From contig OY970067.1 in the NCBI GenBank assembly GCA_963705305.1, positions 4,896,001-4,960,000 on the forward strand: 64,000 bases of DNA. Direction: 5' to 3'. A model generated the notes under the pieces. It was not told the DNA's origin and searched no databases. It was given only the letters and a program-made list of their open reading frames with translations. This document shows positions 1,715 through 9,842 of the stretch, one piece after another. A program made the position numbers and the translations under genes. Position 1 is the stretch's first letter; every line of letters begins with the position of its first letter. Origin of the DNA: an uncultured Methylomirabilota bacterium (lineage in GTDB: Bacteria > Methylomirabilota > Methylomirabilia > Methylomirabilales > 2-02-FULL-66-22).

Positions 1715-2338
1715 TCATTTGCGGTCGGGCTCCTGCGCGCTCGCCGGCACTTGTCTCTTCGCCATATACTCCTTAACGAAGCGGTAGACATCGTCCCACG
1801 TCTTCGCCCGAGGTTCATCGAAGCCCCCATTAGTGGAATTGGCGAAGCAGATCGTGTAGAGGCCACGGCCGCGCAGCAGCTTGAGTGTATCTGGGGAATC
1901 ATCGACATACACATCCGCGCCAACCTGGTCCTTTTCGCGCATAAAGCACAAGTCCCAATACGGGATGGCGTTCTCGTCCAGCCACTCTATGGTCTGTTGT
2001 ATCGCGGTGGCGTGAAAGTGCGAGATGAAAAGCCGGTGAGTGATGATTCTGATACGCACGTCCTCGTCCGAGAGCCTTCTCAGCACCCTTCGAGCGCCTG
2101 GAAACATTGCCTCATTTTTGAAGAGCGCGCGCTGAGTAACCGCCCACCCGTGGAGACTCCGGTACTGATCCCTCCCCTTGATGCCCCACCCTGGCAGCCC
2201 CCAAGATACTTCGGTAGGCAACTCTCCCACTGGACGTTCGAGCCGCTCTGCCGCCATTTCGCGCATCTTGCCGTAGAAATCAGCGACCACACCATCGAGG
2301 TCAACACCAAGTACCAAGGGGTCTGCGGGAAATGTCAT
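1715..2338 (-). CDS. HAD-superfamily 5'(3')-deoxyribonucleotidase-like (NT5C-type) phosphatase
   Basis: HAD motif [14 protein letters not shown] and motif [10 protein letters not shown]; 207 aa; starts 18 bp after the HNH gene stop. Confidence 0.8.
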
Positions 2339-2356
2339 CGCTGGTCTCCCTTTGTC

Positions 2357-3283
2357 TCAGGCCGCCCTCTGGAACAGTACGAACCGCTCCTCCAGGAACT
2401 CTCGCCTCGGCCGCAACCGCTCCGCATGCGGCACGACAATCCGGCTCCCTTGCAGCTCCTGCAGCCCGTACTTAAGCATCGGCCCATCCACTTCCTTCAA
2501 GATGTCCAACCTGACCTCTACCGCAAGATCGGGCCGCACCCCGAGGATGTGCCGGTCGAAGGCGGCATGGTGGAGCTTGCACAGAGCAAGGCCATTCGGA
2601 ACAACCGGCTCCCCCTTGGGGTGGCCATCGGGGAGGATATGGGCGGCCTCCAGGAGTTCGGCGTGGCGAAGGCGACACATGGCACACTGGGTCTGGTAGG
2701 CCTGGAGGACCCGCTGCCGGAAGCTCTCCTGGTGGAGCCGGCGCTGGATAAGGGTAGTGATGTATTGTCGGCGGGCCTCGACGGTGGCCCCCGCCACCTC
2801 CTGGTCGAGGGTGGCGTGCTTGGCATCATCCACAGCCACGCTGAAGAAGAGGTGGGCGGGATCGTCGCCCACGATATAGACAGGCCAGACAGGGAGATGC
2901 TGGCCGGGGACTACTCCGAAGAGGTAGACCAGGGGCACGCGGCAGTGCATGGCCAGCCGGAGACCAGCGTTGTCACGGTGGGAGGGGTCGGTGCCTCGAT
3001 AGCGGTAGAGGAGGAGGCCTCCTGGCCCAACCCCGTCCTCGTAGGGGCGGGGCTTCCCCTCCACGATTGGTGCAGTGGCGATGCTGAGCGGCATCACAGG
3101 GAGGAGACCCGGCTTGAAGATGCCCTGGGGACCGATCGGGGGGATGCGGGTGCCGTCGAAGGTGAACCCGCTGGCCAGGGTGGTACGGGGAAGCACCTCC
3201 CCGTGCAGCCGGGTCTGTTCCGTGAGGAAGCCGAAGGCCGCCAGCCGGACGCGTTGGTCCAGATCAACCGCGGTTCCGTCCAC
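2357..3283 (-). CDS. HNH endonuclease (predicted restriction-endonuclease type) with N-terminal putative SRA/PUA-like domain
   Basis: C-terminal FRQRVLQAYQTQCAMC...LEAAHILP...NGLALCKLHHAAFD. GTG start at 3283 after GGAGGAG...GGA. The N-terminal domain assignment is inference. Confidence 0.85.
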   Translation of the reverse strand: MDGTAVDLDQRVRLAAFGFLTEQTRLHGEVLPRTTLASGFTFDGTRIPPIGPQGIFKPGLLPVMPLSIATAPIVEGKPRPYEDGVGPGGLLLYRYRGTDPSHRDNAGLRLAMHCRVPLVYLFGVVPGQHLPVWPVYIVGDDPAHLFFSVAVDDAKHATLDQEVAGATVEARRQYITTLIQRRLHQESFRQRVLQAYQTQCAMCRLRHAELLEAAHILPDGHPKGEPVVPNGLALCKLHHAAFDRHILGVRPDLAVEVRLDILKEVDGPMLKYGLQELQGSRIVVPHAERLRPRREFLEERFVLFQRAA

Positions 3284-3664
3284 TCCGGCTCCTCCGCTGT
3301 GGCGGCGATCGCTGCCGCGTTGGCCGAGGCAAGAAGTGTGCGGGCCAGAGAGAGCCCGGGAGACGCGTCGGCTGGGATGGTGAAGCCGCCCTTTGGGAGA
3401 TGATGGAATCGGGTGGCTGAGGGGGAGCGTACTCCTCGCCGGGGGGTCAGTCAAGAATCAAGACGGGGTAGGAATGGATCCTGGCATCTTGCTCTGGCCT
3501 CTGTCCTTTCTATGAATCATAACCATTCAGAATCACTGGAACCAGCCTAGGCTTTCTGCTATGCTACGCCGTCTTTGGGACCATCCAATCTAATTGGCGG
3601 TGACACACGGTGTGCTGTGACCCGCCCCCCCACGCCCTCTTTGCTGGAGGGAGGAGAGGAACCA

Positions 3665-3919
3665 ATGCCAACTGAGCTCACCACCACCCTACGGAAGGCC
3701 TTGGCCGAGCTACAGGCAGAGCAGGCACGGCTGGACCGGCAGATTGTGGCGGTCCGGCAGATTCTCGCGGGAGATAAGCGCAGGCAAGTTCGGCGTGCCC
3801 CCGTGAAGCAGCGGGCCAAGGGACGGAAGCCGATGAGCGCTAAGGCCCGGAAGGCGCTGAGCCGGCGGATGAAGGCGTTCTGGGCGAAGCGGCGGGCGGC
3901 GAAGGCCAAGGCATCCTGA
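3665..3919 (+). CDS. Small very basic protein (coiled coil plus Lys/Arg/Ala-rich tail), possible nucleoid-associated protein
   Basis: Strong RBS GGAGGGAGGAGAGG; 84 aa; heptad-like LRKALAELQAEQARLDRQI followed by MSAKARKALSRRMKAFWAKRRAAK. Confidence 0.7.
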   Translation: MPTELTTTLRKALAELQAEQARLDRQIVAVRQILAGDKRRQVRRAPVKQRAKGRKPMSAKARKALSRRMKAFWAKRRAAKAKAS

Positions 3920-4171
3920 ACGTAGGGGGGGCAGCGGCACCTCCCGCTCTCTTCGCGTAGGAGCCCCTCGTCCCAGATCGCTAAAATCCCGATTGGTCGT
4001 GCGGCTTTGATCCTGACTCCTCATCCGCCCAGTTCTTCCGAGGGGTTGCTCATACTTTTCTGCTGGTACATTCTACCTGGGTTGCTCTCGCGGTCGTCGC
4101 ATGCGACGAATCAACTCCAGTATGCTGAGACAGCACTTGTTGAATACTCGCTGAATGCCTCAAAATACTTC

Positions 4172-4199
4172 TTGACAAATAAAGAGGCCAGCGCAGAAT
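4172..4199 (+). promoter_or_regulatory. Candidate sigma70 promoter of the hxs operon
   Basis: TTGACA (4172-4177), 16 bp, CAGAAT, about 50 bp before the hxsA ATG; AT-rich context. Confidence 0.45.
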
Positions 4200-4250
4200 T
4201 AATGGCACGCTGATGTATCCCTACCTTTCGAATGCGCCAGGAGGGGAGCC

Positions 4251-4562
4251 ATGGCAATCATTCCAAAGGTGAACAAGGGGCTCGGTTCTGGTCTCACCAG
4301 ATCCGAGAAGATCCGAAAGACCATCCTCGGCGTCGCTCTCGCAGTCGGCGCGGGAGCCACCGCGCTGGCTGCTTTCCCTGCGACCGCCGCCGCCAACGTT
4401 CCTAGTGTTGGCCCCCCAAGCGTGGACCGGGGGGCCCTTGTGCTCAGCCAGCCATCCGCGCAATCGGCCCAGGGACAGGTGGCTCAGGCCACTGACCACT
4501 ACTCCCACGCGTCTCACGAGTCACATGCGTCTCACTCTTCGCACTATTCGAGCAGCTATTAG
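4251..4562 (+). CDS. hxsA: His-Xaa-Ser repeat precursor peptide
   Basis: RBS AGGAGGGGAG; C-terminus HYS-HAS-HES-HAS-HSS-HYS-SSY; first gene before hxsD and two radical SAM genes. Confidence 0.9.
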   Translation: MAIIPKVNKGLGSGLTRSEKIRKTILGVALAVGAGATALAAFPATAAANVPSVGPPSVDRGALVLSQPSAQSAQGQVAQATDHYSHASHESHASHSSHYSSSY

Positions 4563-4570
4563 GAAGACAG

Positions 4571-5038
4571 GTGGACGGTCCCGAAGGAAGGAGGGCTGAC
4601 ACCGCTCTCCAGTCTGGAACAGATGAATTAGGGGTCTACGCGTGGGTCAGCGTAGACCCCTCATTGTTTAGTCAGACCGTAGTCTTCAAGACGGCGTACT
4701 GGTTCTCAGAGCGCTTCTACCTTTACCTCTCCAAGGCGCCCGACGGGCGGCTCCTCGTGGAACTCCGCCATAAGACCACTGGCACCGCGGAAGAACTCAC
4801 CGTCGCCTGCCGTGAGTTCTGCAACAGTTTGCTCGACCACGCCGTGCGGCAGCAGGTTCTCCAGGAAACCTCTGCCACCCGCGACGCGCTGATTCGCAAG
4901 GCATTCTTTGATGTGCGAAGTCCGGACGCGGCCCGCCAGGTCCAGGCGAATGAAGGGTCGGTGCCACGGGAGGGGCAGAGCTACCGGGAAGATCCCCTCG
5001 GGATCGGAATGCGACCACAACAGGCAACCGACCAATGA
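4571..5038 (+). CDS. hxsD: His-Xaa-Ser system protein HxsD
   Basis: VFKTAYWFSERFYL...EFCNSLLDHAVRQQVLQETSATRDALIRKAF matches the recalled HxsD pattern; GTG start 8 bp after hxsA. Confidence 0.85.
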   Translation: MDGPEGRRADTALQSGTDELGVYAWVSVDPSLFSQTVVFKTAYWFSERFYLYLSKAPDGRLLVELRHKTTGTAEELTVACREFCNSLLDHAVRQQVLQETSATRDALIRKAFFDVRSPDAARQVQANEGSVPREGQSYREDPLGIGMRPQQATDQ

Positions 5039-5274
5039 GATTTGCCCGAACCATCGACACCACGATCTATCCTCGGGGGGCGCTGGCCGACATGCGACAG
5101 GCGTATCGCGACTTCTGCTCCATCTCCGTCACGCCCGGCAATATCCCCGACCTCGTTGATCTCACCATCGACGTTCGAGAACAGTACGAATCCAACGGGC
5201 GCCAGATCGTGCTCGAAGCGTGGAACTATCTGCTGGATCGCGCCTGTCAGATCCACTTCGAGCACCCCACGTAG
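5035..5274 (+). CDS. HxsD-like small protein
   Basis: ATGA overlap with hxsD; 79 aa; IDTTIYP...AYRDF...IVLEAWNYLL parallels the N-terminal half of HxsD. Confidence 0.7.
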   Translation: MRFARTIDTTIYPRGALADMRQAYRDFCSISVTPGNIPDLVDLTIDVREQYESNGRQIVLEAWNYLLDRACQIHFEHPT

Positions 5275-5308
5275 CCCCACGGGGGCAGCACCGAGTCCCG
5301 ATCCGCTC

Positions 5309-6838
5309 ATGGACATGCACGCGGCCCATCCGTTCTGCTCGCCCTCGGAGGGAGCGTCAAGCTCTTCATCGTACCGCCTGCTTCCCTTCACCTTCGAGCG
5401 CTGGTCGCCAGGGGAATACCTGCTGGTCAACGAGGCGGGGGAGTTCCTGCGCTGCCCGTCCGAGGGGTTCTTGGCCTTCGTGGGGCATGCCTTGCCGGCC
5501 ACCGACACCCTGTACCTGGATCTGAAGGCCAAGCACTTCCTGGCGGACGGTGTCTCGTCGGCCTGCCTCGATATGCTCGCCGCGAAGTACCGCGCGAAGA
5601 AAGGCTTCATCGAGGGATTCACCAAGCTCCACATGCTCGTCCCGACCATTCGCTGCAATAACGCCTGTTCCTACTGCCAGGTCTCGCGGCGGGACCGGGA
5701 CACCTCCCCGGCCTCCGACATGACGGAGGCGATCCTGCATCGATCGGTCGATCTGATGCTGACCTCCCCGAGCCCCCATCTCACGATGGAGTTCCAGGGG
5801 GGCGAACCGCTCCTCCGGTTCGATCTGGTCAAGGAGGCCGTAGAATATGCCAAGGAGCGCAACGTCTCAGGGAGGAAGCAGATCACCATGGTGGTCTGCA
5901 CCAACCTCACGTTGCTGGAAGACGAGCATCTCAACTTCTTCCGCCAGCACGGCGTCCTGATTTCCACCTCGGTCGATGGGCCGGCCTTCCTCCACGAGTT
6001 GAACCGACCTCCCCGGTCACCCGCGTCCGGTTACGCGACGGTGGAGCGCAACATCCGCCGCGCTCAGGAGGCACTCGGGCGTGAGGCCGTCTCGGCCCTC
6101 ATGACCACCACCCGCGCAAGCTTGAAGTTCCCGCGGGAGATTGTCGATGAGTATCTCCGGCTAGACCTGGGGTCCCTATTCGTCCGAGAGCTCAACCCGT
6201 ACGGGTACGCGGTTCGAGCGGCAGCCCAAATTGGCTACACCCCGGAGGAGTTCTTCCGCTTCTACACGAATGTCCTGGACTACATCCTGGACATCAACCG
6301 GCGGGGGCGCACCTTTGCCGAGAGTTACGCGGGACTCGTCCTCCGGAAGATACTCACCCCCTGGTCCGTGGGCTTCGTGGACCTCCAGTCGCCAGCCGCC
6401 GCCGGCATCGGGGCTGTTTTGTATAACTTCGACGGCAACGTCTACCCCTCGGACGAGGCGCGCATGCTCGCCGAGGCGGGAGACTGCACCTTCCGCTTGG
6501 GGAATGTCCTGGAAGGCGACTTTGCCGCGATCTTCTTGGGCGAGACCATGGAGGCGATGGTGCCGGCCGCCTGCAACGAATCGCTGGCTGGCTGCTCCGA
6601 GTGCGCCTACCGCGTCTATTGCGGGGCGGACCCCGTCCGCCATTACGCCACCCAGCGGGACCTCTTCGGGAACCGACCGGCGAGCGGGTTTTGCAAGAAG
6701 AATAGGGCCATCATCCGGCACCTGTTCGAGCTGGTGTTCGCCGCCGAGAAGGATCAGGACTTGGAGCGGATCCTGTGGAGCTGGATCTCCCGGGAAGACC
6801 AGTCGCGCCTCAAGATCCCGGAGGTGTGCCTCCCATGA
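5309..6838 (+). CDS. hxsB: His-Xaa-Ser system radical SAM/SPASM maturase HxsB
   Basis: YRLLPFTFER N-terminus, CNNACSYC, EFQGGEPLL, VYPSDEARML and SPASM-type CSECAYRVYCGADP...FC. Start at 5309 or 5315. Confidence 0.9.
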   Translation: MDMHAAHPFCSPSEGASSSSSYRLLPFTFERWSPGEYLLVNEAGEFLRCPSEGFLAFVGHALPATDTLYLDLKAKHFLADGVSSACLDMLAAKYRAKKGFIEGFTKLHMLVPTIRCNNACSYCQVSRRDRDTSPASDMTEAILHRSVDLMLTSPSPHLTMEFQGGEPLLRFDLVKEAVEYAKERNVSGRKQITMVVCTNLTLLEDEHLNFFRQHGVLISTSVDGPAFLHELNRPPRSPASGYATVERNIRRAQEALGREAVSALMTTTRASLKFPREIVDEYLRLDLGSLFVRELNPYGYAVRAAAQIGYTPEEFFRFYTNVLDYILDINRRGRTFAESYAGLVLRKILTPWSVGFVDLQSPAAAGIGAVLYNFDGNVYPSDEARMLAEAGDCTFRLGNVLEGDFAAIFLGETMEAMVPAACNESLAGCSECAYRVYCGADPVRHYATQRDLFGNRPASGFCKKNRAIIRHLFELVFAAEKDQDLERILWSWISREDQSRLKIPEVCLP

Positions 6839-8031
6839 AGCTCTCGGCAATCGGCACCCCTCGCGGCTTGACCGCCAGTCCGATCGCGCGAGTCACCCGG
6901 AGGTCCCACGATCCGGCCGAGCGTTCCCTGTACTATCGCGTCCTGGAGGACGGGACCGCGCCCGGCTCTCCAGAGGAGATTCAGGGGTACCTCGGCGTGC
7001 TGGTCGCCGCGAACGCGCCCCCCTGGGTCCCCCCGAGAGATGTGCCGGTCATCTCCGGCTTCCGGGATCTGTCCTTCCTTGAGGAGGACGCCATTGTCAA
7101 GATCGGGGCCTCCACGGGACGGCTCAGAGTGCTCTACCGCCCCAGCTCGGCCCATAATGCGCTCTTGGTGACCTCGGCCTGCAATAACCGGTGCATCATG
7201 TGCTCCCAGCCCCCCACGAAAGAGCCCGACGATCCCCTCGACGAGCAGTTGCGGGTCATCGACCTCATCTCGGGCCAGCCCGAGTCCCTTGCCATCACCG
7301 GGGGGGAGCCGACCCTCCTCAAGGAGGGGCTGTTCACGCTTCTGGCGCGTCTCCGAGACCGCCTCCCGCATACCGCAGTCCACCTCCTCACCAATGGACG
7401 CCTGTACGCCTACGAGGACTACGTCCGGCATCTCTCGGAGATCGCACATCCCCACTTTACCTCCGCCATCCCCCTCTACGCCGATGTCGCCCCCCTGCAT
7501 GATGCCATCGTGGGTGCTCCCGGGGCGTTCGATCAGGCCGTCCATGGCCTCTACAATGCCGCCAAGTACGCCCTGAGCTTGGAAATTCGGGTGGTCTTGC
7601 AGCGCCCAACGATCCGGCGGCTGCCCCAGCTGGCGGAATTCATCTACCGGAACTTTCCCTTTGTGAATCACATCGCCTTCATGGGCTTGGAAAACATGGG
7701 GTATGCCGTCAAGAACTGGGACACGCTGTGGGTGGACCCCGTCGAATATGCGCCCACCCTCGAAGCGTGCGTACGGTCCCTCTTTGTCCGCCGGATGAGT
7801 GTGTCCCTCTACAACCTGCAGCTCTGCACCCTGCCCAGATCGCTCTGGTGGTTCGCGAGAAAGAGCATCTCGGAATACAAGAGCATTTACGTCGAGGAGT
7901 GCGTGGCTTGCGGCGCCAAAGACTTGTGTGGCGGCCTCTTCGCTTCCACAAAGCGGAGGCACAGCGCATTCCTGCATCCCATCCGGCGGAGTTCTGCGGG
8001 TCCACCCCTGCTTTCGCCTCGCCTGGCTTGA
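6835..8031 (+). CDS. hxsC: His-Xaa-Ser system radical SAM maturase HxsC
   Basis: ATGA overlap with hxsB; HNALLVTSACNNRCIMCSQPP, ITGGEPTL, LLTNGR, C-terminal ECVACGAKDLCGG. Confidence 0.9.
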   Translation: MKLSAIGTPRGLTASPIARVTRRSHDPAERSLYYRVLEDGTAPGSPEEIQGYLGVLVAANAPPWVPPRDVPVISGFRDLSFLEEDAIVKIGASTGRLRVLYRPSSAHNALLVTSACNNRCIMCSQPPTKEPDDPLDEQLRVIDLISGQPESLAITGGEPTLLKEGLFTLLARLRDRLPHTAVHLLTNGRLYAYEDYVRHLSEIAHPHFTSAIPLYADVAPLHDAIVGAPGAFDQAVHGLYNAAKYALSLEIRVVLQRPTIRRLPQLAEFIYRNFPFVNHIAFMGLENMGYAVKNWDTLWVDPVEYAPTLEACVRSLFVRRMSVSLYNLQLCTLPRSLWWFARKSISEYKSIYVEECVACGAKDLCGGLFASTKRRHSAFLHPIRRSSAGPPLLSPRLA

Positions 8032-8065
8032 CGACTCCGGTCAAACATCGCTCCTAGGGTGCCCG

Positions 8066-8153
8066 AACTCGCAACAGAAGAGCGAAAGTGGTGCGAGCTG
8101 CCTCCGGCGACGACCCCTAACTCTTTGAAATCCGTAACGAACTGTTGCGAGTT
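8066..8153. repeat. Copy 1 of the CTCGCA-core palindromic site with an accessory half-site
   Basis: AACTCGCAACA-12bp-TGGTGCGAGCT, then TGTTGCGAGTT 54 bp further on. Confidence 0.75.
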
Positions 8154-8322
8154 TGTGAGATGGTTCGTCGCGAAGGAGGGGGGTCCTTGTCCTGGGGTCT
8201 TCCCCTAGCCCCACAAGGTAATCCACCCCAGGTCCTGAGCGAGGGGTGGCAGCCGCACGGCACCCAGATCCTGCCCCGCGGTGCCATAGAGTACCGTCTC
8301 TCGGCTCCCGAAGCCCATCCCT

Positions 8323-9842
8323 CCCTAATCTCCGGCTAAGAAGTTGAGGGGGATCGCGAATCACGCAGCGGCCCGCAGTGCGCGCGGCCCGCGGGGTTGG
8401 CATCGGCCTTGCTTGGTTTCACCCAGTGGGTGCAAACACCACAAGGAGGAGAGCGATGCCCGACACCTCGCCCCGGTTGCCGTTCGAGATCGATGACGCG
8501 ATCGACCCCACGCTGGTCACGGGCCGGGCCGGGGTCCCGCTCGTGATCGAGCTGTTCCGCCAGCTCGGGGTGGCCCAGGCCGTCGACACCCACGTTGCGG
8601 TCAAGCAGCGGCAGCGCGGATTACCCCCCTCGCAGCTCGTGGAGAGTCTCGTCGCGTTGTGGACGAGCGGCGGGGACCGCTGCCAGGACCTCACGACGCT
8701 CCGGGAGGATCAGGCCCTGGCCACGCTGCTCGGCTACCCCCTGCCGGCCGCGACCACGGTCCGGGACTTCCTCGAGGCCTTCCACGTGGAGGACGGGCCG
8801 CTCTGGGTGGCCGGGCCCGCGGCCACGGTCCCCCTGGAGTCCGCCCCCTTGGCGGGCCTCGGACAGGCGAACCGGACGCTGGTCGCGGGCGTCCAGCGCG
8901 GGGCCCGGGCGGCGACGGCCACCCTGGATGTGGACGCGACGCTCGTCGAGAGCCACAAGGACGCGGCGACCGTGGCCTACGACGGGACCCGGGGCTACCA
9001 GCCCGTCGTGGTCCTCTGGGCCGAGCACGATGTCATCGTGCACGACCAGTTCCGCGATGGCCAGGTGCCCGCCGGGTGCGGCAACGTGCGCGTCCTCGAA
9101 CAGGCGGTGGCCAACTTGCCCCAGGGCGTGGACCGCATCTCCCTGCGGGCCGACAGCGCCCTCTACGAGACGGAGGTCCTCCGCTGGTGCGAGGAGAAGA
9201 AAATCGCCTACGCGATTAGCGCCGATATGTCCGCGCAGCTCCAGGCCGAGATCCGGCGCCTCCCCGCGGCCGCCTGGCAGCTCGAGCGGGAGGAGCCCGA
9301 GGCGATCCGGGCCTGGGCCGAAGTCCCCTACGTCCCCGAGGATGGCGATCACCGGAAGGCGCGGCCGTGCGTTCGCCGCTACCTCGCGGTGCGTATCCAG
9401 CGACGCCAGGGGAGCCTCTTCGCCGACGGGAGTAGCGTGCAGTACTTCGCCGTGGTCACCAATCGGCCGGAGGATGGGCTCACGATCCTCCGGTGGCACC
9501 GGGAGAAAGCAGGGACCATCGAGCACACCCATCACGTCCTCAAGACCGAGCTGGCGGCCGCCGCGCTGCCCAGTGGGAAGTTCGGGGCGAACGCCGCCTG
9601 GTTCCGGCTGAACGTGCTCACCTACAACCTGCTCACCGCGCTCAAGCGGTTGACCTTACCCGGAGATCTCCGGACCGCCCGGCCGAAGCGTCTCCGGTTC
9701 CTGCTGTTCAACACCGTCGGGAAGGTCGTCGCGCATGCCCGACGGACGCTCTTGCGGCTCTCGGGCGCCCTGCAGCACGCCTTGCTCGTCCGGGCGCGGC
9801 GCAAGATCGCCCGGCTGGCCACCGCTTAGCCGGAGATTAGGG
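8323..9842 (+). mobile_element. IS1380-family insertion sequence
   Basis: Perfect 18-bp terminal inverted repeats CCCTAATCTCCGGCTAAG (8323-8340) and CTTAGCCGGAGATTAGGG (9825-9842); flanks TCCCT/GCCCT form an imperfect 5-bp target duplication. Confidence 0.9.
8456..9829 (+). CDS. IS1380-family DDE transposase
   Basis: ATG after AAGGAGGAGAG; TLDVDAT, GYQP, LRADSALY, IEHTHHVLK, LPSGKFGANAAW, LRFLLF motifs. Confidence 0.9.
   Translation: MPDTSPRLPFEIDDAIDPTLVTGRAGVPLVIELFRQLGVAQAVDTHVAVKQRQRGLPPSQLVESLVALWTSGGDRCQDLTTLREDQALATLLGYPLPAATTVRDFLEAFHVEDGPLWVAGPAATVPLESAPLAGLGQANRTLVAGVQRGARAATATLDVDATLVESHKDAATVAYDGTRGYQPVVVLWAEHDVIVHDQFRDGQVPAGCGNVRVLEQAVANLPQGVDRISLRADSALYETEVLRWCEEKKIAYAISADMSAQLQAEIRRLPAAAWQLEREEPEAIRAWAEVPYVPEDGDHRKARPCVRRYLAVRIQRRQGSLFADGSSVQYFAVVTNRPEDGLTILRWHREKAGTIEHTHHVLKTELAAAALPSGKFGANAAWFRLNVLTYNLLTALKRLTLPGDLRTARPKRLRFLLFNTVGKVVAHARRTLLRLSGALQHALLVRARRKIARLATA

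Follow-up and report, generated by a model that had tools for sequence, protein, structure and literature searches.

His-Xaa-Ser (HXS) systems, whose original bioinformatic definition is credited to Haft and Basu (PMC13128918, PMC9062424), combine two radical S-adenosylmethionine (SAM) enzymes, HxsB and HxsC, with a helper, HxsD, and a repeat protein, HxsA. In the accessible text of a 2022 article in the Journal of Biological Chemistry, HxsB appears only as part of an annotated, uncharacterized cluster (PMC9062424). A full-text literature search returned one experimental HXS study together with its preprint: Li et al. (Nat Commun 2026, PMC13128918) report that the HXS system of E. coli blocks phage DNA entry. 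The present study concerns a variant of this system, a five-gene locus at positions 4251-8031 of a 64,000-nucleotide stretch of contig OY970067.1 (the window) from an uncultured Methylomirabilota bacterium.

The E. coli system, encoded as hxsD-hxsB-hxsC-hxsA, restricted 110 of 113 coliphages without affecting adsorption, and all four genes were required for defense (PMC13128918). Its HxsA has 214 residues, of which 1-22 form a signal peptide, and contains five HxS repeats as well as a peptidoglycan-binding domain. Defense was abolished when the signal peptide was replaced or the peptidoglycan-binding domain mutated, and the effector is described as periplasmic and peptidoglycan-anchored. HxsB, HxsC and HxsD process HxsA at its N-terminus, and the sole modification detected was a single +8.0 Da shift, of the ‘+C/-4H type’, on the SHRSS sequence of the last repeat. 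Strep-tagged HxsC pulls down HxsD, and HxsB, HxsC and HxsD were undetectable at native levels. Reconstitution failed, partly because E. coli HxsA alone was insoluble. In the model that the authors put forward, the basic repeats would attach electrostatically to incoming DNA, and they present HXS as the first defense system shown to stop phage DNA ejection. Their HxsA-based survey found the D-B-C-A order in 99.6% of cases, four proteins in 99.8% and an origin in Pseudomonadota in 99.7% (PMC13128918). A sequence-only reading of the window had taken the product and role of these systems to be uncharacterized, a statement overtaken by the antiphage function found in E. coli; its guess that the product could be defense-related is borne out at the level of the family by the same work.

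The locus in the window is a complete, intact member of the HXS family. Open reading frame (ORF) calls place five tightly packed genes on the plus strand, in the order hxsA-hxsD-hxsD-like-hxsB-hxsC (A-D-D'-B-C):

4251-4562, plus strand: hxsA, 103 residues, ATG start behind an AGGAGG Shine-Dalgarno sequence
4571-5038, plus strand: hxsD, 155 residues, GTG start
5035-5274, plus strand: hxsD-like, 79 residues, ATGA overlap with hxsD at 5035-5038
5309-6838, plus strand: hxsB, 509 residues, ATG start 35 nt past the hxsD-like stop
6835-8031, plus strand: hxsC, 398 residues, ATGA overlap with hxsB at 6835-6838

None of the five reading frames is interrupted, and the genes are translationally coupled. 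The compact operon with two ATGA overlaps, the six H-x-S triplets and the CNNACSYC and CNNRCIMC motifs described from the sequence are thus all present. As in E. coli, HxsB and HxsC occur as a pair, both above their equivalog cut-offs, together with HxsD; the repeat protein has a signal-like N-terminal region and an S-H-x-S-S sequence in its last repeat; and neither a protease nor an exporter gene belongs to the cluster. The sequence-only reading had equated this layout with the family-defining one, which is true of the HXS core but not of the arrangement: the order is A-D-D'-B-C rather than the D-B-C-A order that accounts for 99.6% of the published survey, HxsA is short, and a second HxsD is present. 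Gene for gene, five genes stand here against four in E. coli, HxsA has 103 residues against 214, and the extra 79-residue HxsD paralogue has no counterpart in the E. coli system. Unlike E. coli HxsA, the window protein lacks a peptidoglycan-binding domain, and its repeats stand at the very C-terminal end, six of them without basic residues as compared with five that are ‘basic-enriched’ (PMC13128918).

Family assignment rests on the curated NCBIfam hidden Markov models (HMMs). HxsB scores 572.9 bits against TIGR03978 (cut-off 370) and covers the full model (1-466), HxsC scores 353.2 bits against TIGR03977 (cut-off 267.9), and HxsD scores 69 bits against TIGR03976 (cut-off 50), which confirms the proposed His-Xaa-Ser membership. 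The second-best family for HxsB, PapB, reaches only 98.7 bits (cut-off 340), so no unrelated radical SAM family outscores the assignment. Across the two enzymes Pfam detects Radical_SAM and Fer4_12 alone, and in the three small proteins nothing. The CX3CX2C signature is CNNACSYC in HxsB and CNNRCIMC in HxsC, in both cases at residues 116-123. The C-terminal region of HxsB contains cysteines at 393, 422, 429, 432, 438 and 462; across 77 HxsB sequences, C197, C429, C432, C438 and C462 are invariant, as are C116/C120/C123 and C331/C356/C359/C365 across 50 HxsC sequences. PADLOC returned only weak viperin-model matches for HxsB and HxsC (35.8 and 25.2 bits), which reflect generic radical SAM similarity.

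Among proteins of solved structure, the nearest sequence relative of HxsB is the anaerobic sulfatase-maturating enzyme 4K37 (E 5.7e-14), and HxsC has no solved sequence relative at E ≤ 1e-3. The radical SAM core of HxsB aligns to the anaerobic sulfatase-maturating enzyme (4K36-4K39), CteB (5WGG) and ChlB (9GM3) with E values from 5.7e-14 to 1.9e-9, and HxsB shares with these enzymes a Cys-rich C-terminal auxiliary-cluster region. All the family models of these radical SAM/SPASM maturases nevertheless score far below their cut-offs on HxsB, and unlike the three relatives HxsB acts with a second radical SAM enzyme and HxsD-type helpers. To our knowledge, +C/-4H chemistry matches no known reaction of the anaerobic sulfatase-maturating enzyme, CteB or ChlB. 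A likeness to triceptides, put forward from the three-residue periodicity of the repeats, does not extend to family membership: the cyclophane maturase models GrrM/OscB (72.2 bits, cut-off 310), YhhB (68.9, 445), FxsB (47.7, 370) and XyeB (42.8, 450) all fall far short. The associated idea of serial His-to-Ser crosslinks, each costing 2 Da per repeat, sits poorly with the only mass spectrometry data for the family, a single +8 Da site in E. coli, which do not exclude it for the subtype itself (PMC13128918).

The host genome (5.65 Mb, one contig) encodes a single HxsB. The next-best matches to the HxsB model in this genome are two adjacent radical SAM genes on the minus strand (G000:C1:4172587-4175193; L002 and L005, 73.8 and 47.9 bits), which may form another peptide-maturation locus.

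The precursor is the most distinctive component. Its elements are as follows:

4251-4394, plus strand: signal-peptide-like region, HxsA residues 1-48, delimited by inspection of hydropathy, charge and the -3/-1 rule
4497-4550, plus strand: six tandem H-x-S triplets, HYS HAS HES HAS HSS HYS, residues 83-100, read from the sequence
4539-4553, plus strand: terminal S97-H98-Y99-S100-S101, putative site of radical SAM modification, parallel to SHRSS of E. coli

HxsA has what looks like a signal-like, export-type N-terminus. Residues 1-24 contain six K/R and one D/E and form a basic n-region, residues 25-42 a hydrophobic core, and A-A-A at 46-48 is matched by an aligned A-N-A in the closest relatives; the exportable precursor proposed earlier is consistent with these features, recognized by inspection. 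With cleavage placed by the same means, the mature protein would comprise about 55 residues, including six His, 14 Ser, one K/R and three D/E. The H and S columns of the triplets are invariant in alignments A1 and A3, and the x residues are Y, A, E, A, S and Y, none of them basic. S-S-Y follows the six triplets, so that the protein ends in HYSSSY. Upstream of the repeats lie an N-terminal M..(L/I)PKV.K motif and a G-A-L-V-L motif.

No Pfam family matches HxsA at E ≤ 0.1, and all four curated HxsA models score it below their cut-offs: 20.4 bits for TIGR03979 (121.65), 20.0 for NF038296 (48), 12.5 for NF038309 (65) and 21.9 for NF038313/HxsA4, the best of the four (55). A check against the HxsA-D models, suggested with the first reading, therefore succeeds for HxsB, HxsC and HxsD and fails for HxsA, whose alignment is confined to the repeats. 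NCBIfam already includes variant HxsA classes and an ‘HxsD-like protein’, namely HxsA2 (NF038296), HxsA3 (NF038309), HxsA4 (NF038313) and HxsD_rel (NF038315); the terms ‘HxsA2’, ‘Bacteroid’ and ‘TIGR03979’ do not occur in the available text of PMC13128918. Unlike members of the curated HxsA2, HxsA3 and HxsA4 classes, the window HxsA stays under every HxsA cut-off, and so do its counterparts in all five related genome loci described below. Because the low scores are common to these five relatives, they indicate a missing model rather than decay.

A profile built from the six subtype HxsA sequences (A3) was used to delineate the family. Of 8000 candidates scored, 2077 matched at E ≤ 1e-3, many of which will be other HxsA types caught through their repeats. 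The counts given here therefore refer to the 120 matches listed (E up to 6.8e-19, 92-160 residues), which include the window HxsA, recovered at E 1.2e-33. All 120 lack a name or are labeled ‘hypothetical’, and no precomputed Pfam domain is recorded for any of them. An N-terminal (L/F)PK(V/L).K-like motif is found in 108, and a G-A-(LIV)-(LIV)-L motif, about 20 residues ahead of the repeats, in 94. The number of repeats is six to eight with one exception. At the last repeat, x is Tyr in 114 sequences and SHYSS is present in 112, compared with a varied composition at the other repeats (Y 192, S 179, A 97, R 48, Q 41, E 37, others). The last repeat thus holds a special status in the short HxsA family. 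Plain signal peptides seldom have an n-region so conserved in sequence, a hint that the maturation proteins read it too.

The two small helpers are related to each other. HxsD retains counterparts of the LYW and LLNDYxLRE motifs of the E. coli protein as A-Y-W and L-L-D...R (alignments A2 and A6). Structurally, the AlphaFold2 model of HxsD (mean predicted local distance difference test, pLDDT, 83.5) has a folded core at residues 13-112 and a disordered tail at 113-155, and the model of the HxsD-like protein is a strand-helix-strand-strand-helix unit (mean pLDDT 95.3). HxsD corresponds to the HxsD-like core with an extra N-terminal strand, a 40-residue helix and the disordered tail. The HxsD-like sequence aligns to the HxsD core with the A-Y and N..L(L)D motifs kept (alignments A2 and A5), lacks the Arg that was mutated in the E. 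coli HxsD study, and has near-invariant cysteines at positions 28 and 71. The 79-residue protein is accordingly a truncated HxsD paralogue without the first strand and the end of the long helix.

Against NF038315 the HxsD-like protein scores 22.9 bits, under the cut-off of 41, which two of the five related proteins pass (57 and 42.3 bits). A six-member profile of the window protein and these five relatives recovers the window protein at E 1.2e-30 and matches 84 of 241 candidates at E ≤ 1e-3, all 74-88 residues long; by sequence, the window protein is a divergent member of the HxsD-like family. Foldseek found no solved structure at E ≤ 1e-3 for either helper, and no PqqD-like peptide-recognition domain is among its rows. 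Its weak rows pointed to KH domains and circularly permuted S6 in the case of the HxsD-like protein, and to Rpb11-type subunits and type III secretion chaperones in the case of HxsD; these were rejected as too weak to assign a fold. Complex prediction for HxsB, HxsD (residues 1-115) and the HxsD-like partner gave values of 0.65, 0.67 and 0.70, compared with 0.00 and 0.00 when the partner was replaced and 0.72 when HxsB was replaced by an unrelated protein; the result is neither support nor counter-evidence.

Comparative analysis shows that the five-gene arrangement is a recurrent subtype. Genome loci were taken as the best 80 of 129 HxsB relatives, one genome per species, with HxsB identities to the window of at most 59%. 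An ORF with at least three tandem HxS triplets is present in 74 of these 80 loci. A relative of the 79-residue protein is present in only five (L009, L010, L011, L012 and L084), all arranged as A-D-D'-B-C, and these five hold the closest HxsB relatives among the genome loci. A metagenome scan with the HxsD-like profile yielded 27 loci, of which 23 have D, D' and B together; hxsA lies directly upstream in 17 of the 23, and in the other six the contig starts no more than 84 nt before hxsD. The remaining four loci are two frameshifted fragments and two spurious matches at E 7e-4. The nearest relative of all is the metagenome contig L176, with 81% HxsB identity. In the metagenome relatives L178 and L200, hxsB or hxsA appears split by frameshifts into short ORFs, which could represent sequencing error or decay.

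In a maximum-likelihood tree of 90 HxsB sequences, all 19 rows of the subtype fall within one clade of 23 rows (Shimodaira-Hasegawa-like approximate likelihood ratio test, SH-aLRT, 100), separate from a 67-row, mostly Bacteroidota clade. Two Vibrionaceae loci arranged D-B-C-A and two loci arranged A-D-B-C make up the other four rows of the clade. The subtype label requires two changes on the tree, and none of 500 shuffles was as clustered; a single origin of the subtype is compatible with this topology. No flanking ORF of at least 70 residues is common to the six subtype loci (the window and the five genome loci), nor is there a conserved sixth gene, be it a protease, an exporter or an immunity gene. 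Since the flanks of related loci differ and share nothing, the five genes form the whole conserved unit. The absence of a protease or exporter that had been noted for the cluster likewise holds for the window's flanks and for the six loci compared. Both the layout and the peptide design recur in unrelated genomes, which places them beyond chance.

The subtype matches none of the four curated HxsA models above cut-off, and no description of it was found in the text of PMC13128918 or elsewhere in the full-text literature search. What is new here is the LPKV-type short HxsA family, its strict pairing with an HxsD paralogue, its departure from two central elements of the published model, and a hairpin embedded in the operon.

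Several related loci have features of their own. A staphylococcal-nuclease/thermonuclease gene lies directly upstream of hxsA in L010 (1686-2417), and another such gene comes immediately after hxsC on the Methylobacter plasmid NZ_CP091425.1 (L175, 6088-6804). An exported nuclease is a notable neighbor, in two unrelated loci, for a system reported to hold up phage DNA in the periplasm. Most of the 80 nearest HxsB loci (L017-L088) belong to Bacteroidota, usually in the order A-D-B-C, and many of these loci have long HxsA proteins, with C-terminal parts resembling peptidoglycan-binding repeats. This composition is at odds with the 99.7% Pseudomonadota of the HxsA-based survey (PMC13128918). The host of the window differs from the surveyed majority as well, its rpoB being nearest to records labeled Nitrospirae or Nitrospirota (60-70% identity in the best-matching segment). 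In the Sphingobacteriaceae loci L024, L029, L061 and L074, two or three HxS-repeat ORFs surround one HxsD-B-C set, and in one type of these ORFs the C-terminal end is a Gly-rich hydrophobic segment resembling a membrane anchor.

Two candidate regulatory elements accompany hxsA:

4631-4660, plus strand: RNA hairpin with an 11-bp core stem, an 8-nt loop and a T-rich tract after it, inside the first 90 nt of hxsD
4172-4199, plus strand: sigma-70-like promoter candidate, TTGACA-16 nt-CAGAAT, 10 of 12 matches, about 50 nt 5' of the hxsA start

The hairpin was derived from the window sequence and then tested on an alignment of 27 subtype loci (set A8, gapless and codon-aligned). Its 45-nt segment folds with a free energy of -25.7 kcal/mol (z -5.5), and 16 of 28 hairpin segments fold at z ≤ -3. 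At least nine of the 11 stem pairs are kept in 13 of the 27 loci, 11 of which have at least five T in the 8-nt window just after the stem; in the other 14 the stem is weak or missing. Paired cells amount to 73.4%, compared with 67.9 +/- 1.1% in shuffles (0 of 500 reach the observed value) and 34-57% with the partner slid. The high shuffle baseline indicates that much of the pairing follows from the conserved residues G-V-Y-A ... V-D-P. Double-sided changes occur in 24 cells, compared with 8.6 +/- 3.3 in shuffles (again 0 of 500) and lower values in every slid control, and involve six of the 11 stem pairs, in some of which a synonymous third position of Tyr/Asp pairs with the first position of Val/Ile. 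From these patterns, there is roughly an even chance that the hairpin acts as a leaky terminator or stabilizer that would lift hxsA mRNA over the enzyme mRNA. Such a role would fit the finding that HxsB, HxsC and HxsD are undetectable at native levels in E. coli, though the gene order differs there (PMC13128918). The promoter candidate is the sole hit in 3400-8500; because shuffled sequence gives 0.7 +/- 0.7 hits, it is its position that recommends it.

By homology with the E. coli system, the reading we favor, with moderate confidence, is that the locus is a variant HXS subtype whose short peptide would block phage DNA entry. HxsA would be made as a pre-protein. In the cytoplasm, HxsB and HxsC would covalently modify the invariant last repeat, S97-H98-Y99-S100-S101, and drive N-terminal processing, with HxsD and, in this subtype, its truncated paralogue as helpers. 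The product of about 55 residues would then be exported into the periplasmic space, in which it could interfere with the entry of phage DNA. The host has an outer membrane and a periplasm, as indicated by its BamA (608 bits). The modification chemistry, export, antiphage activity and hairpin function proposed here are inferred.

Two elements of the published model do not transfer to this subtype. Peptidoglycan anchoring is one, because HxsA has no such domain and the 55 residues after the signal leave no room for it. Electrostatic DNA binding is the other, because the repeats contain no basic residue. The mode of action of the mature peptide is consequently the weakest step of the proposal: either the short peptide acts otherwise, free, membrane-held or through another partner, or the subtype has another role.

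Several further points weigh against an antiphage function for the subtype. The peptidoglycan-binding region is needed in E. coli, and no Pfam domain is found in HxsA here; the published DNA-binding model requires basic repeats, and the mature part here has one K/R against three D/E, with K/R at any x position in only 28 of the 120 short-HxsA matches listed (PMC13128918). The authors of that study themselves leave the chemistry of the +8 Da shift, the export route and the mechanism open. Both HxsA and the HxsD-like protein score under the curated NCBIfam cut-offs, and the signal peptide was called by eye. Around related loci, most of the neighboring genes are of housekeeping or mixed type, not defense genes. 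The defense role is extended to the subtype by homology, and PADLOC-DB 2.0.0 contains no HXS model and so gives no independent defense call.

The shortness of HxsA also suits a conventional ribosomally synthesized and post-translationally modified peptide (RiPP), in which the N-terminus would be a leader and the last 25-40 residues or so would be secreted as an antimicrobial or a signal. The conserved motifs of the ‘signal’ region (LPKV.K-like in 108 and G-A-(LIV)-(LIV)-L in 94 of the 120 matches listed) could be those of a leader, the sequence relatives of HxsB are peptide maturases, and a hairpin follows the precursor gene, as is also seen in lantibiotic operons. However, no leader protease, ABC exporter or immunity gene lies in or near the six loci, the hydrophobic stretch with A-x-A behind it resembles a Sec signal, and the E. 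coli product stays periplasmic (PMC13128918). We regard a secreted RiPP as unlikely.

Slightly less probable still is a function in metal handling, in which the enzymes would make a small, soluble, His-rich peptide for Zn, Ni, Cu or Fe, acting in the periplasm or outside the cell. Six His within 18 residues at a free C-terminus, a non-basic mature part and the lack of an anchor domain would all suit such a peptide, and the genes flanking the related locus L012 encode a P-type ATPase and a TerC-family protein. Across the six loci, however, the cassette has no conserved transporter, TonB-dependent receptor or metal regulator beside it, and the sole homologous system tested is antiphage (PMC13128918). 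The patchy distribution of the cassette, absent from the 40 relatives of the host that were searched, fits an accessory trait and has nothing metal-specific about it.

The genes around the operon in the window are the following:

1715-2338, minus strand: NT5C-family 5' deoxynucleotidase, 207 residues, upstream of the operon
2357-3454, minus strand: HNH_2 endonuclease, 365 residues, PADLOC HNH model 74.5 bits
3575-3919, plus strand: 114-residue ORF, C-terminal half rich in Lys/Arg, 330 nt upstream of hxsA
8323-9842: intact insertion sequence (IS) with perfect 18-nt inverted ends at 8323-8340 and 9825-9842, 291 bp downstream of hxsC
8378-9829: DDE_Tnp_1_4 transposase, 483 residues, within the IS

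The NT5C and HNH_2 genes (1715-3454) may be a second defense-type gene pair beside the operon. The 114-residue basic protein was considered as a component of the system and rejected, having no Pfam or PADLOC family and no counterpart in related loci. Neither a protease nor an exporter is found in the cluster or among these flanking genes (NT5C, HNH endonuclease, 114-residue protein and IS transposase), and the flanks of the IS contain no obvious target-site duplication.

The guanine-cytosine (GC) content of the operon is 63.2%, compared with 66.7 +/- 2.4% for same-sized windows, 11% of which are lower. HxsB was not found in the genomes of 40 relatives (20 of the same genus and 20 of the same order, completeness 63-100%), and HxsB-like matches turned up on 588 plasmid records, in 399 of which they span 80% or more of the query. 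Taken together, the GC content, the IS, the HNH neighbor, the absence from all 40 relatives and the plasmid matches indicate that the cassette is probably accessory and horizontally moving, and horizontally acquired in the host genome; this accessory, mobile character is as expected of a defense system. No RNA run was listed as containing the operon stretch; only one DNA run contains it (word share 0.55), and it may be the source sample. The position beside an IS in a lower-GC stretch, the absence from the relatives searched and the sub-threshold scores of hxsA and hxsD-like could also describe a recently acquired passenger that is silent or decaying, but this is very improbable given five open frames, intact catalytic and auxiliary cysteines, a preserved Shine-Dalgarno sequence and preserved overlaps, and low HMM scores that recur in the five genome-locus relatives and so point to missing models.

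A bolder proposal, which we advance only tentatively and consider rather doubtful, is that the LPKV-type cassette is a separate functional HXS class making a small free or membrane-proximal periplasmic peptide, with no anchoring and no basic residues. If this is true and the peptide is still antiphage, the modified terminal S-H-Y-S-S, not electrostatic DNA binding, would be the active principle of HXS immunity; the minimal substrate of about 55 residues would be the best handle on the +C/-4H chemistry; and a leaky terminator inside hxsD would set the ratio of peptide to enzyme.

For the host genome, the locus is an accessory cassette of a known kind and not a new kind of biology. For the family, HXS-type systems extend well beyond the Pseudomonadota counted by HxsA-model searches, and the subtype provides a much shorter substrate that shares the invariant motif of the last repeat. 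With neither an anchor nor basic repeats, it is a natural experiment that bears directly on the published model of an electrostatic, anchored effector.

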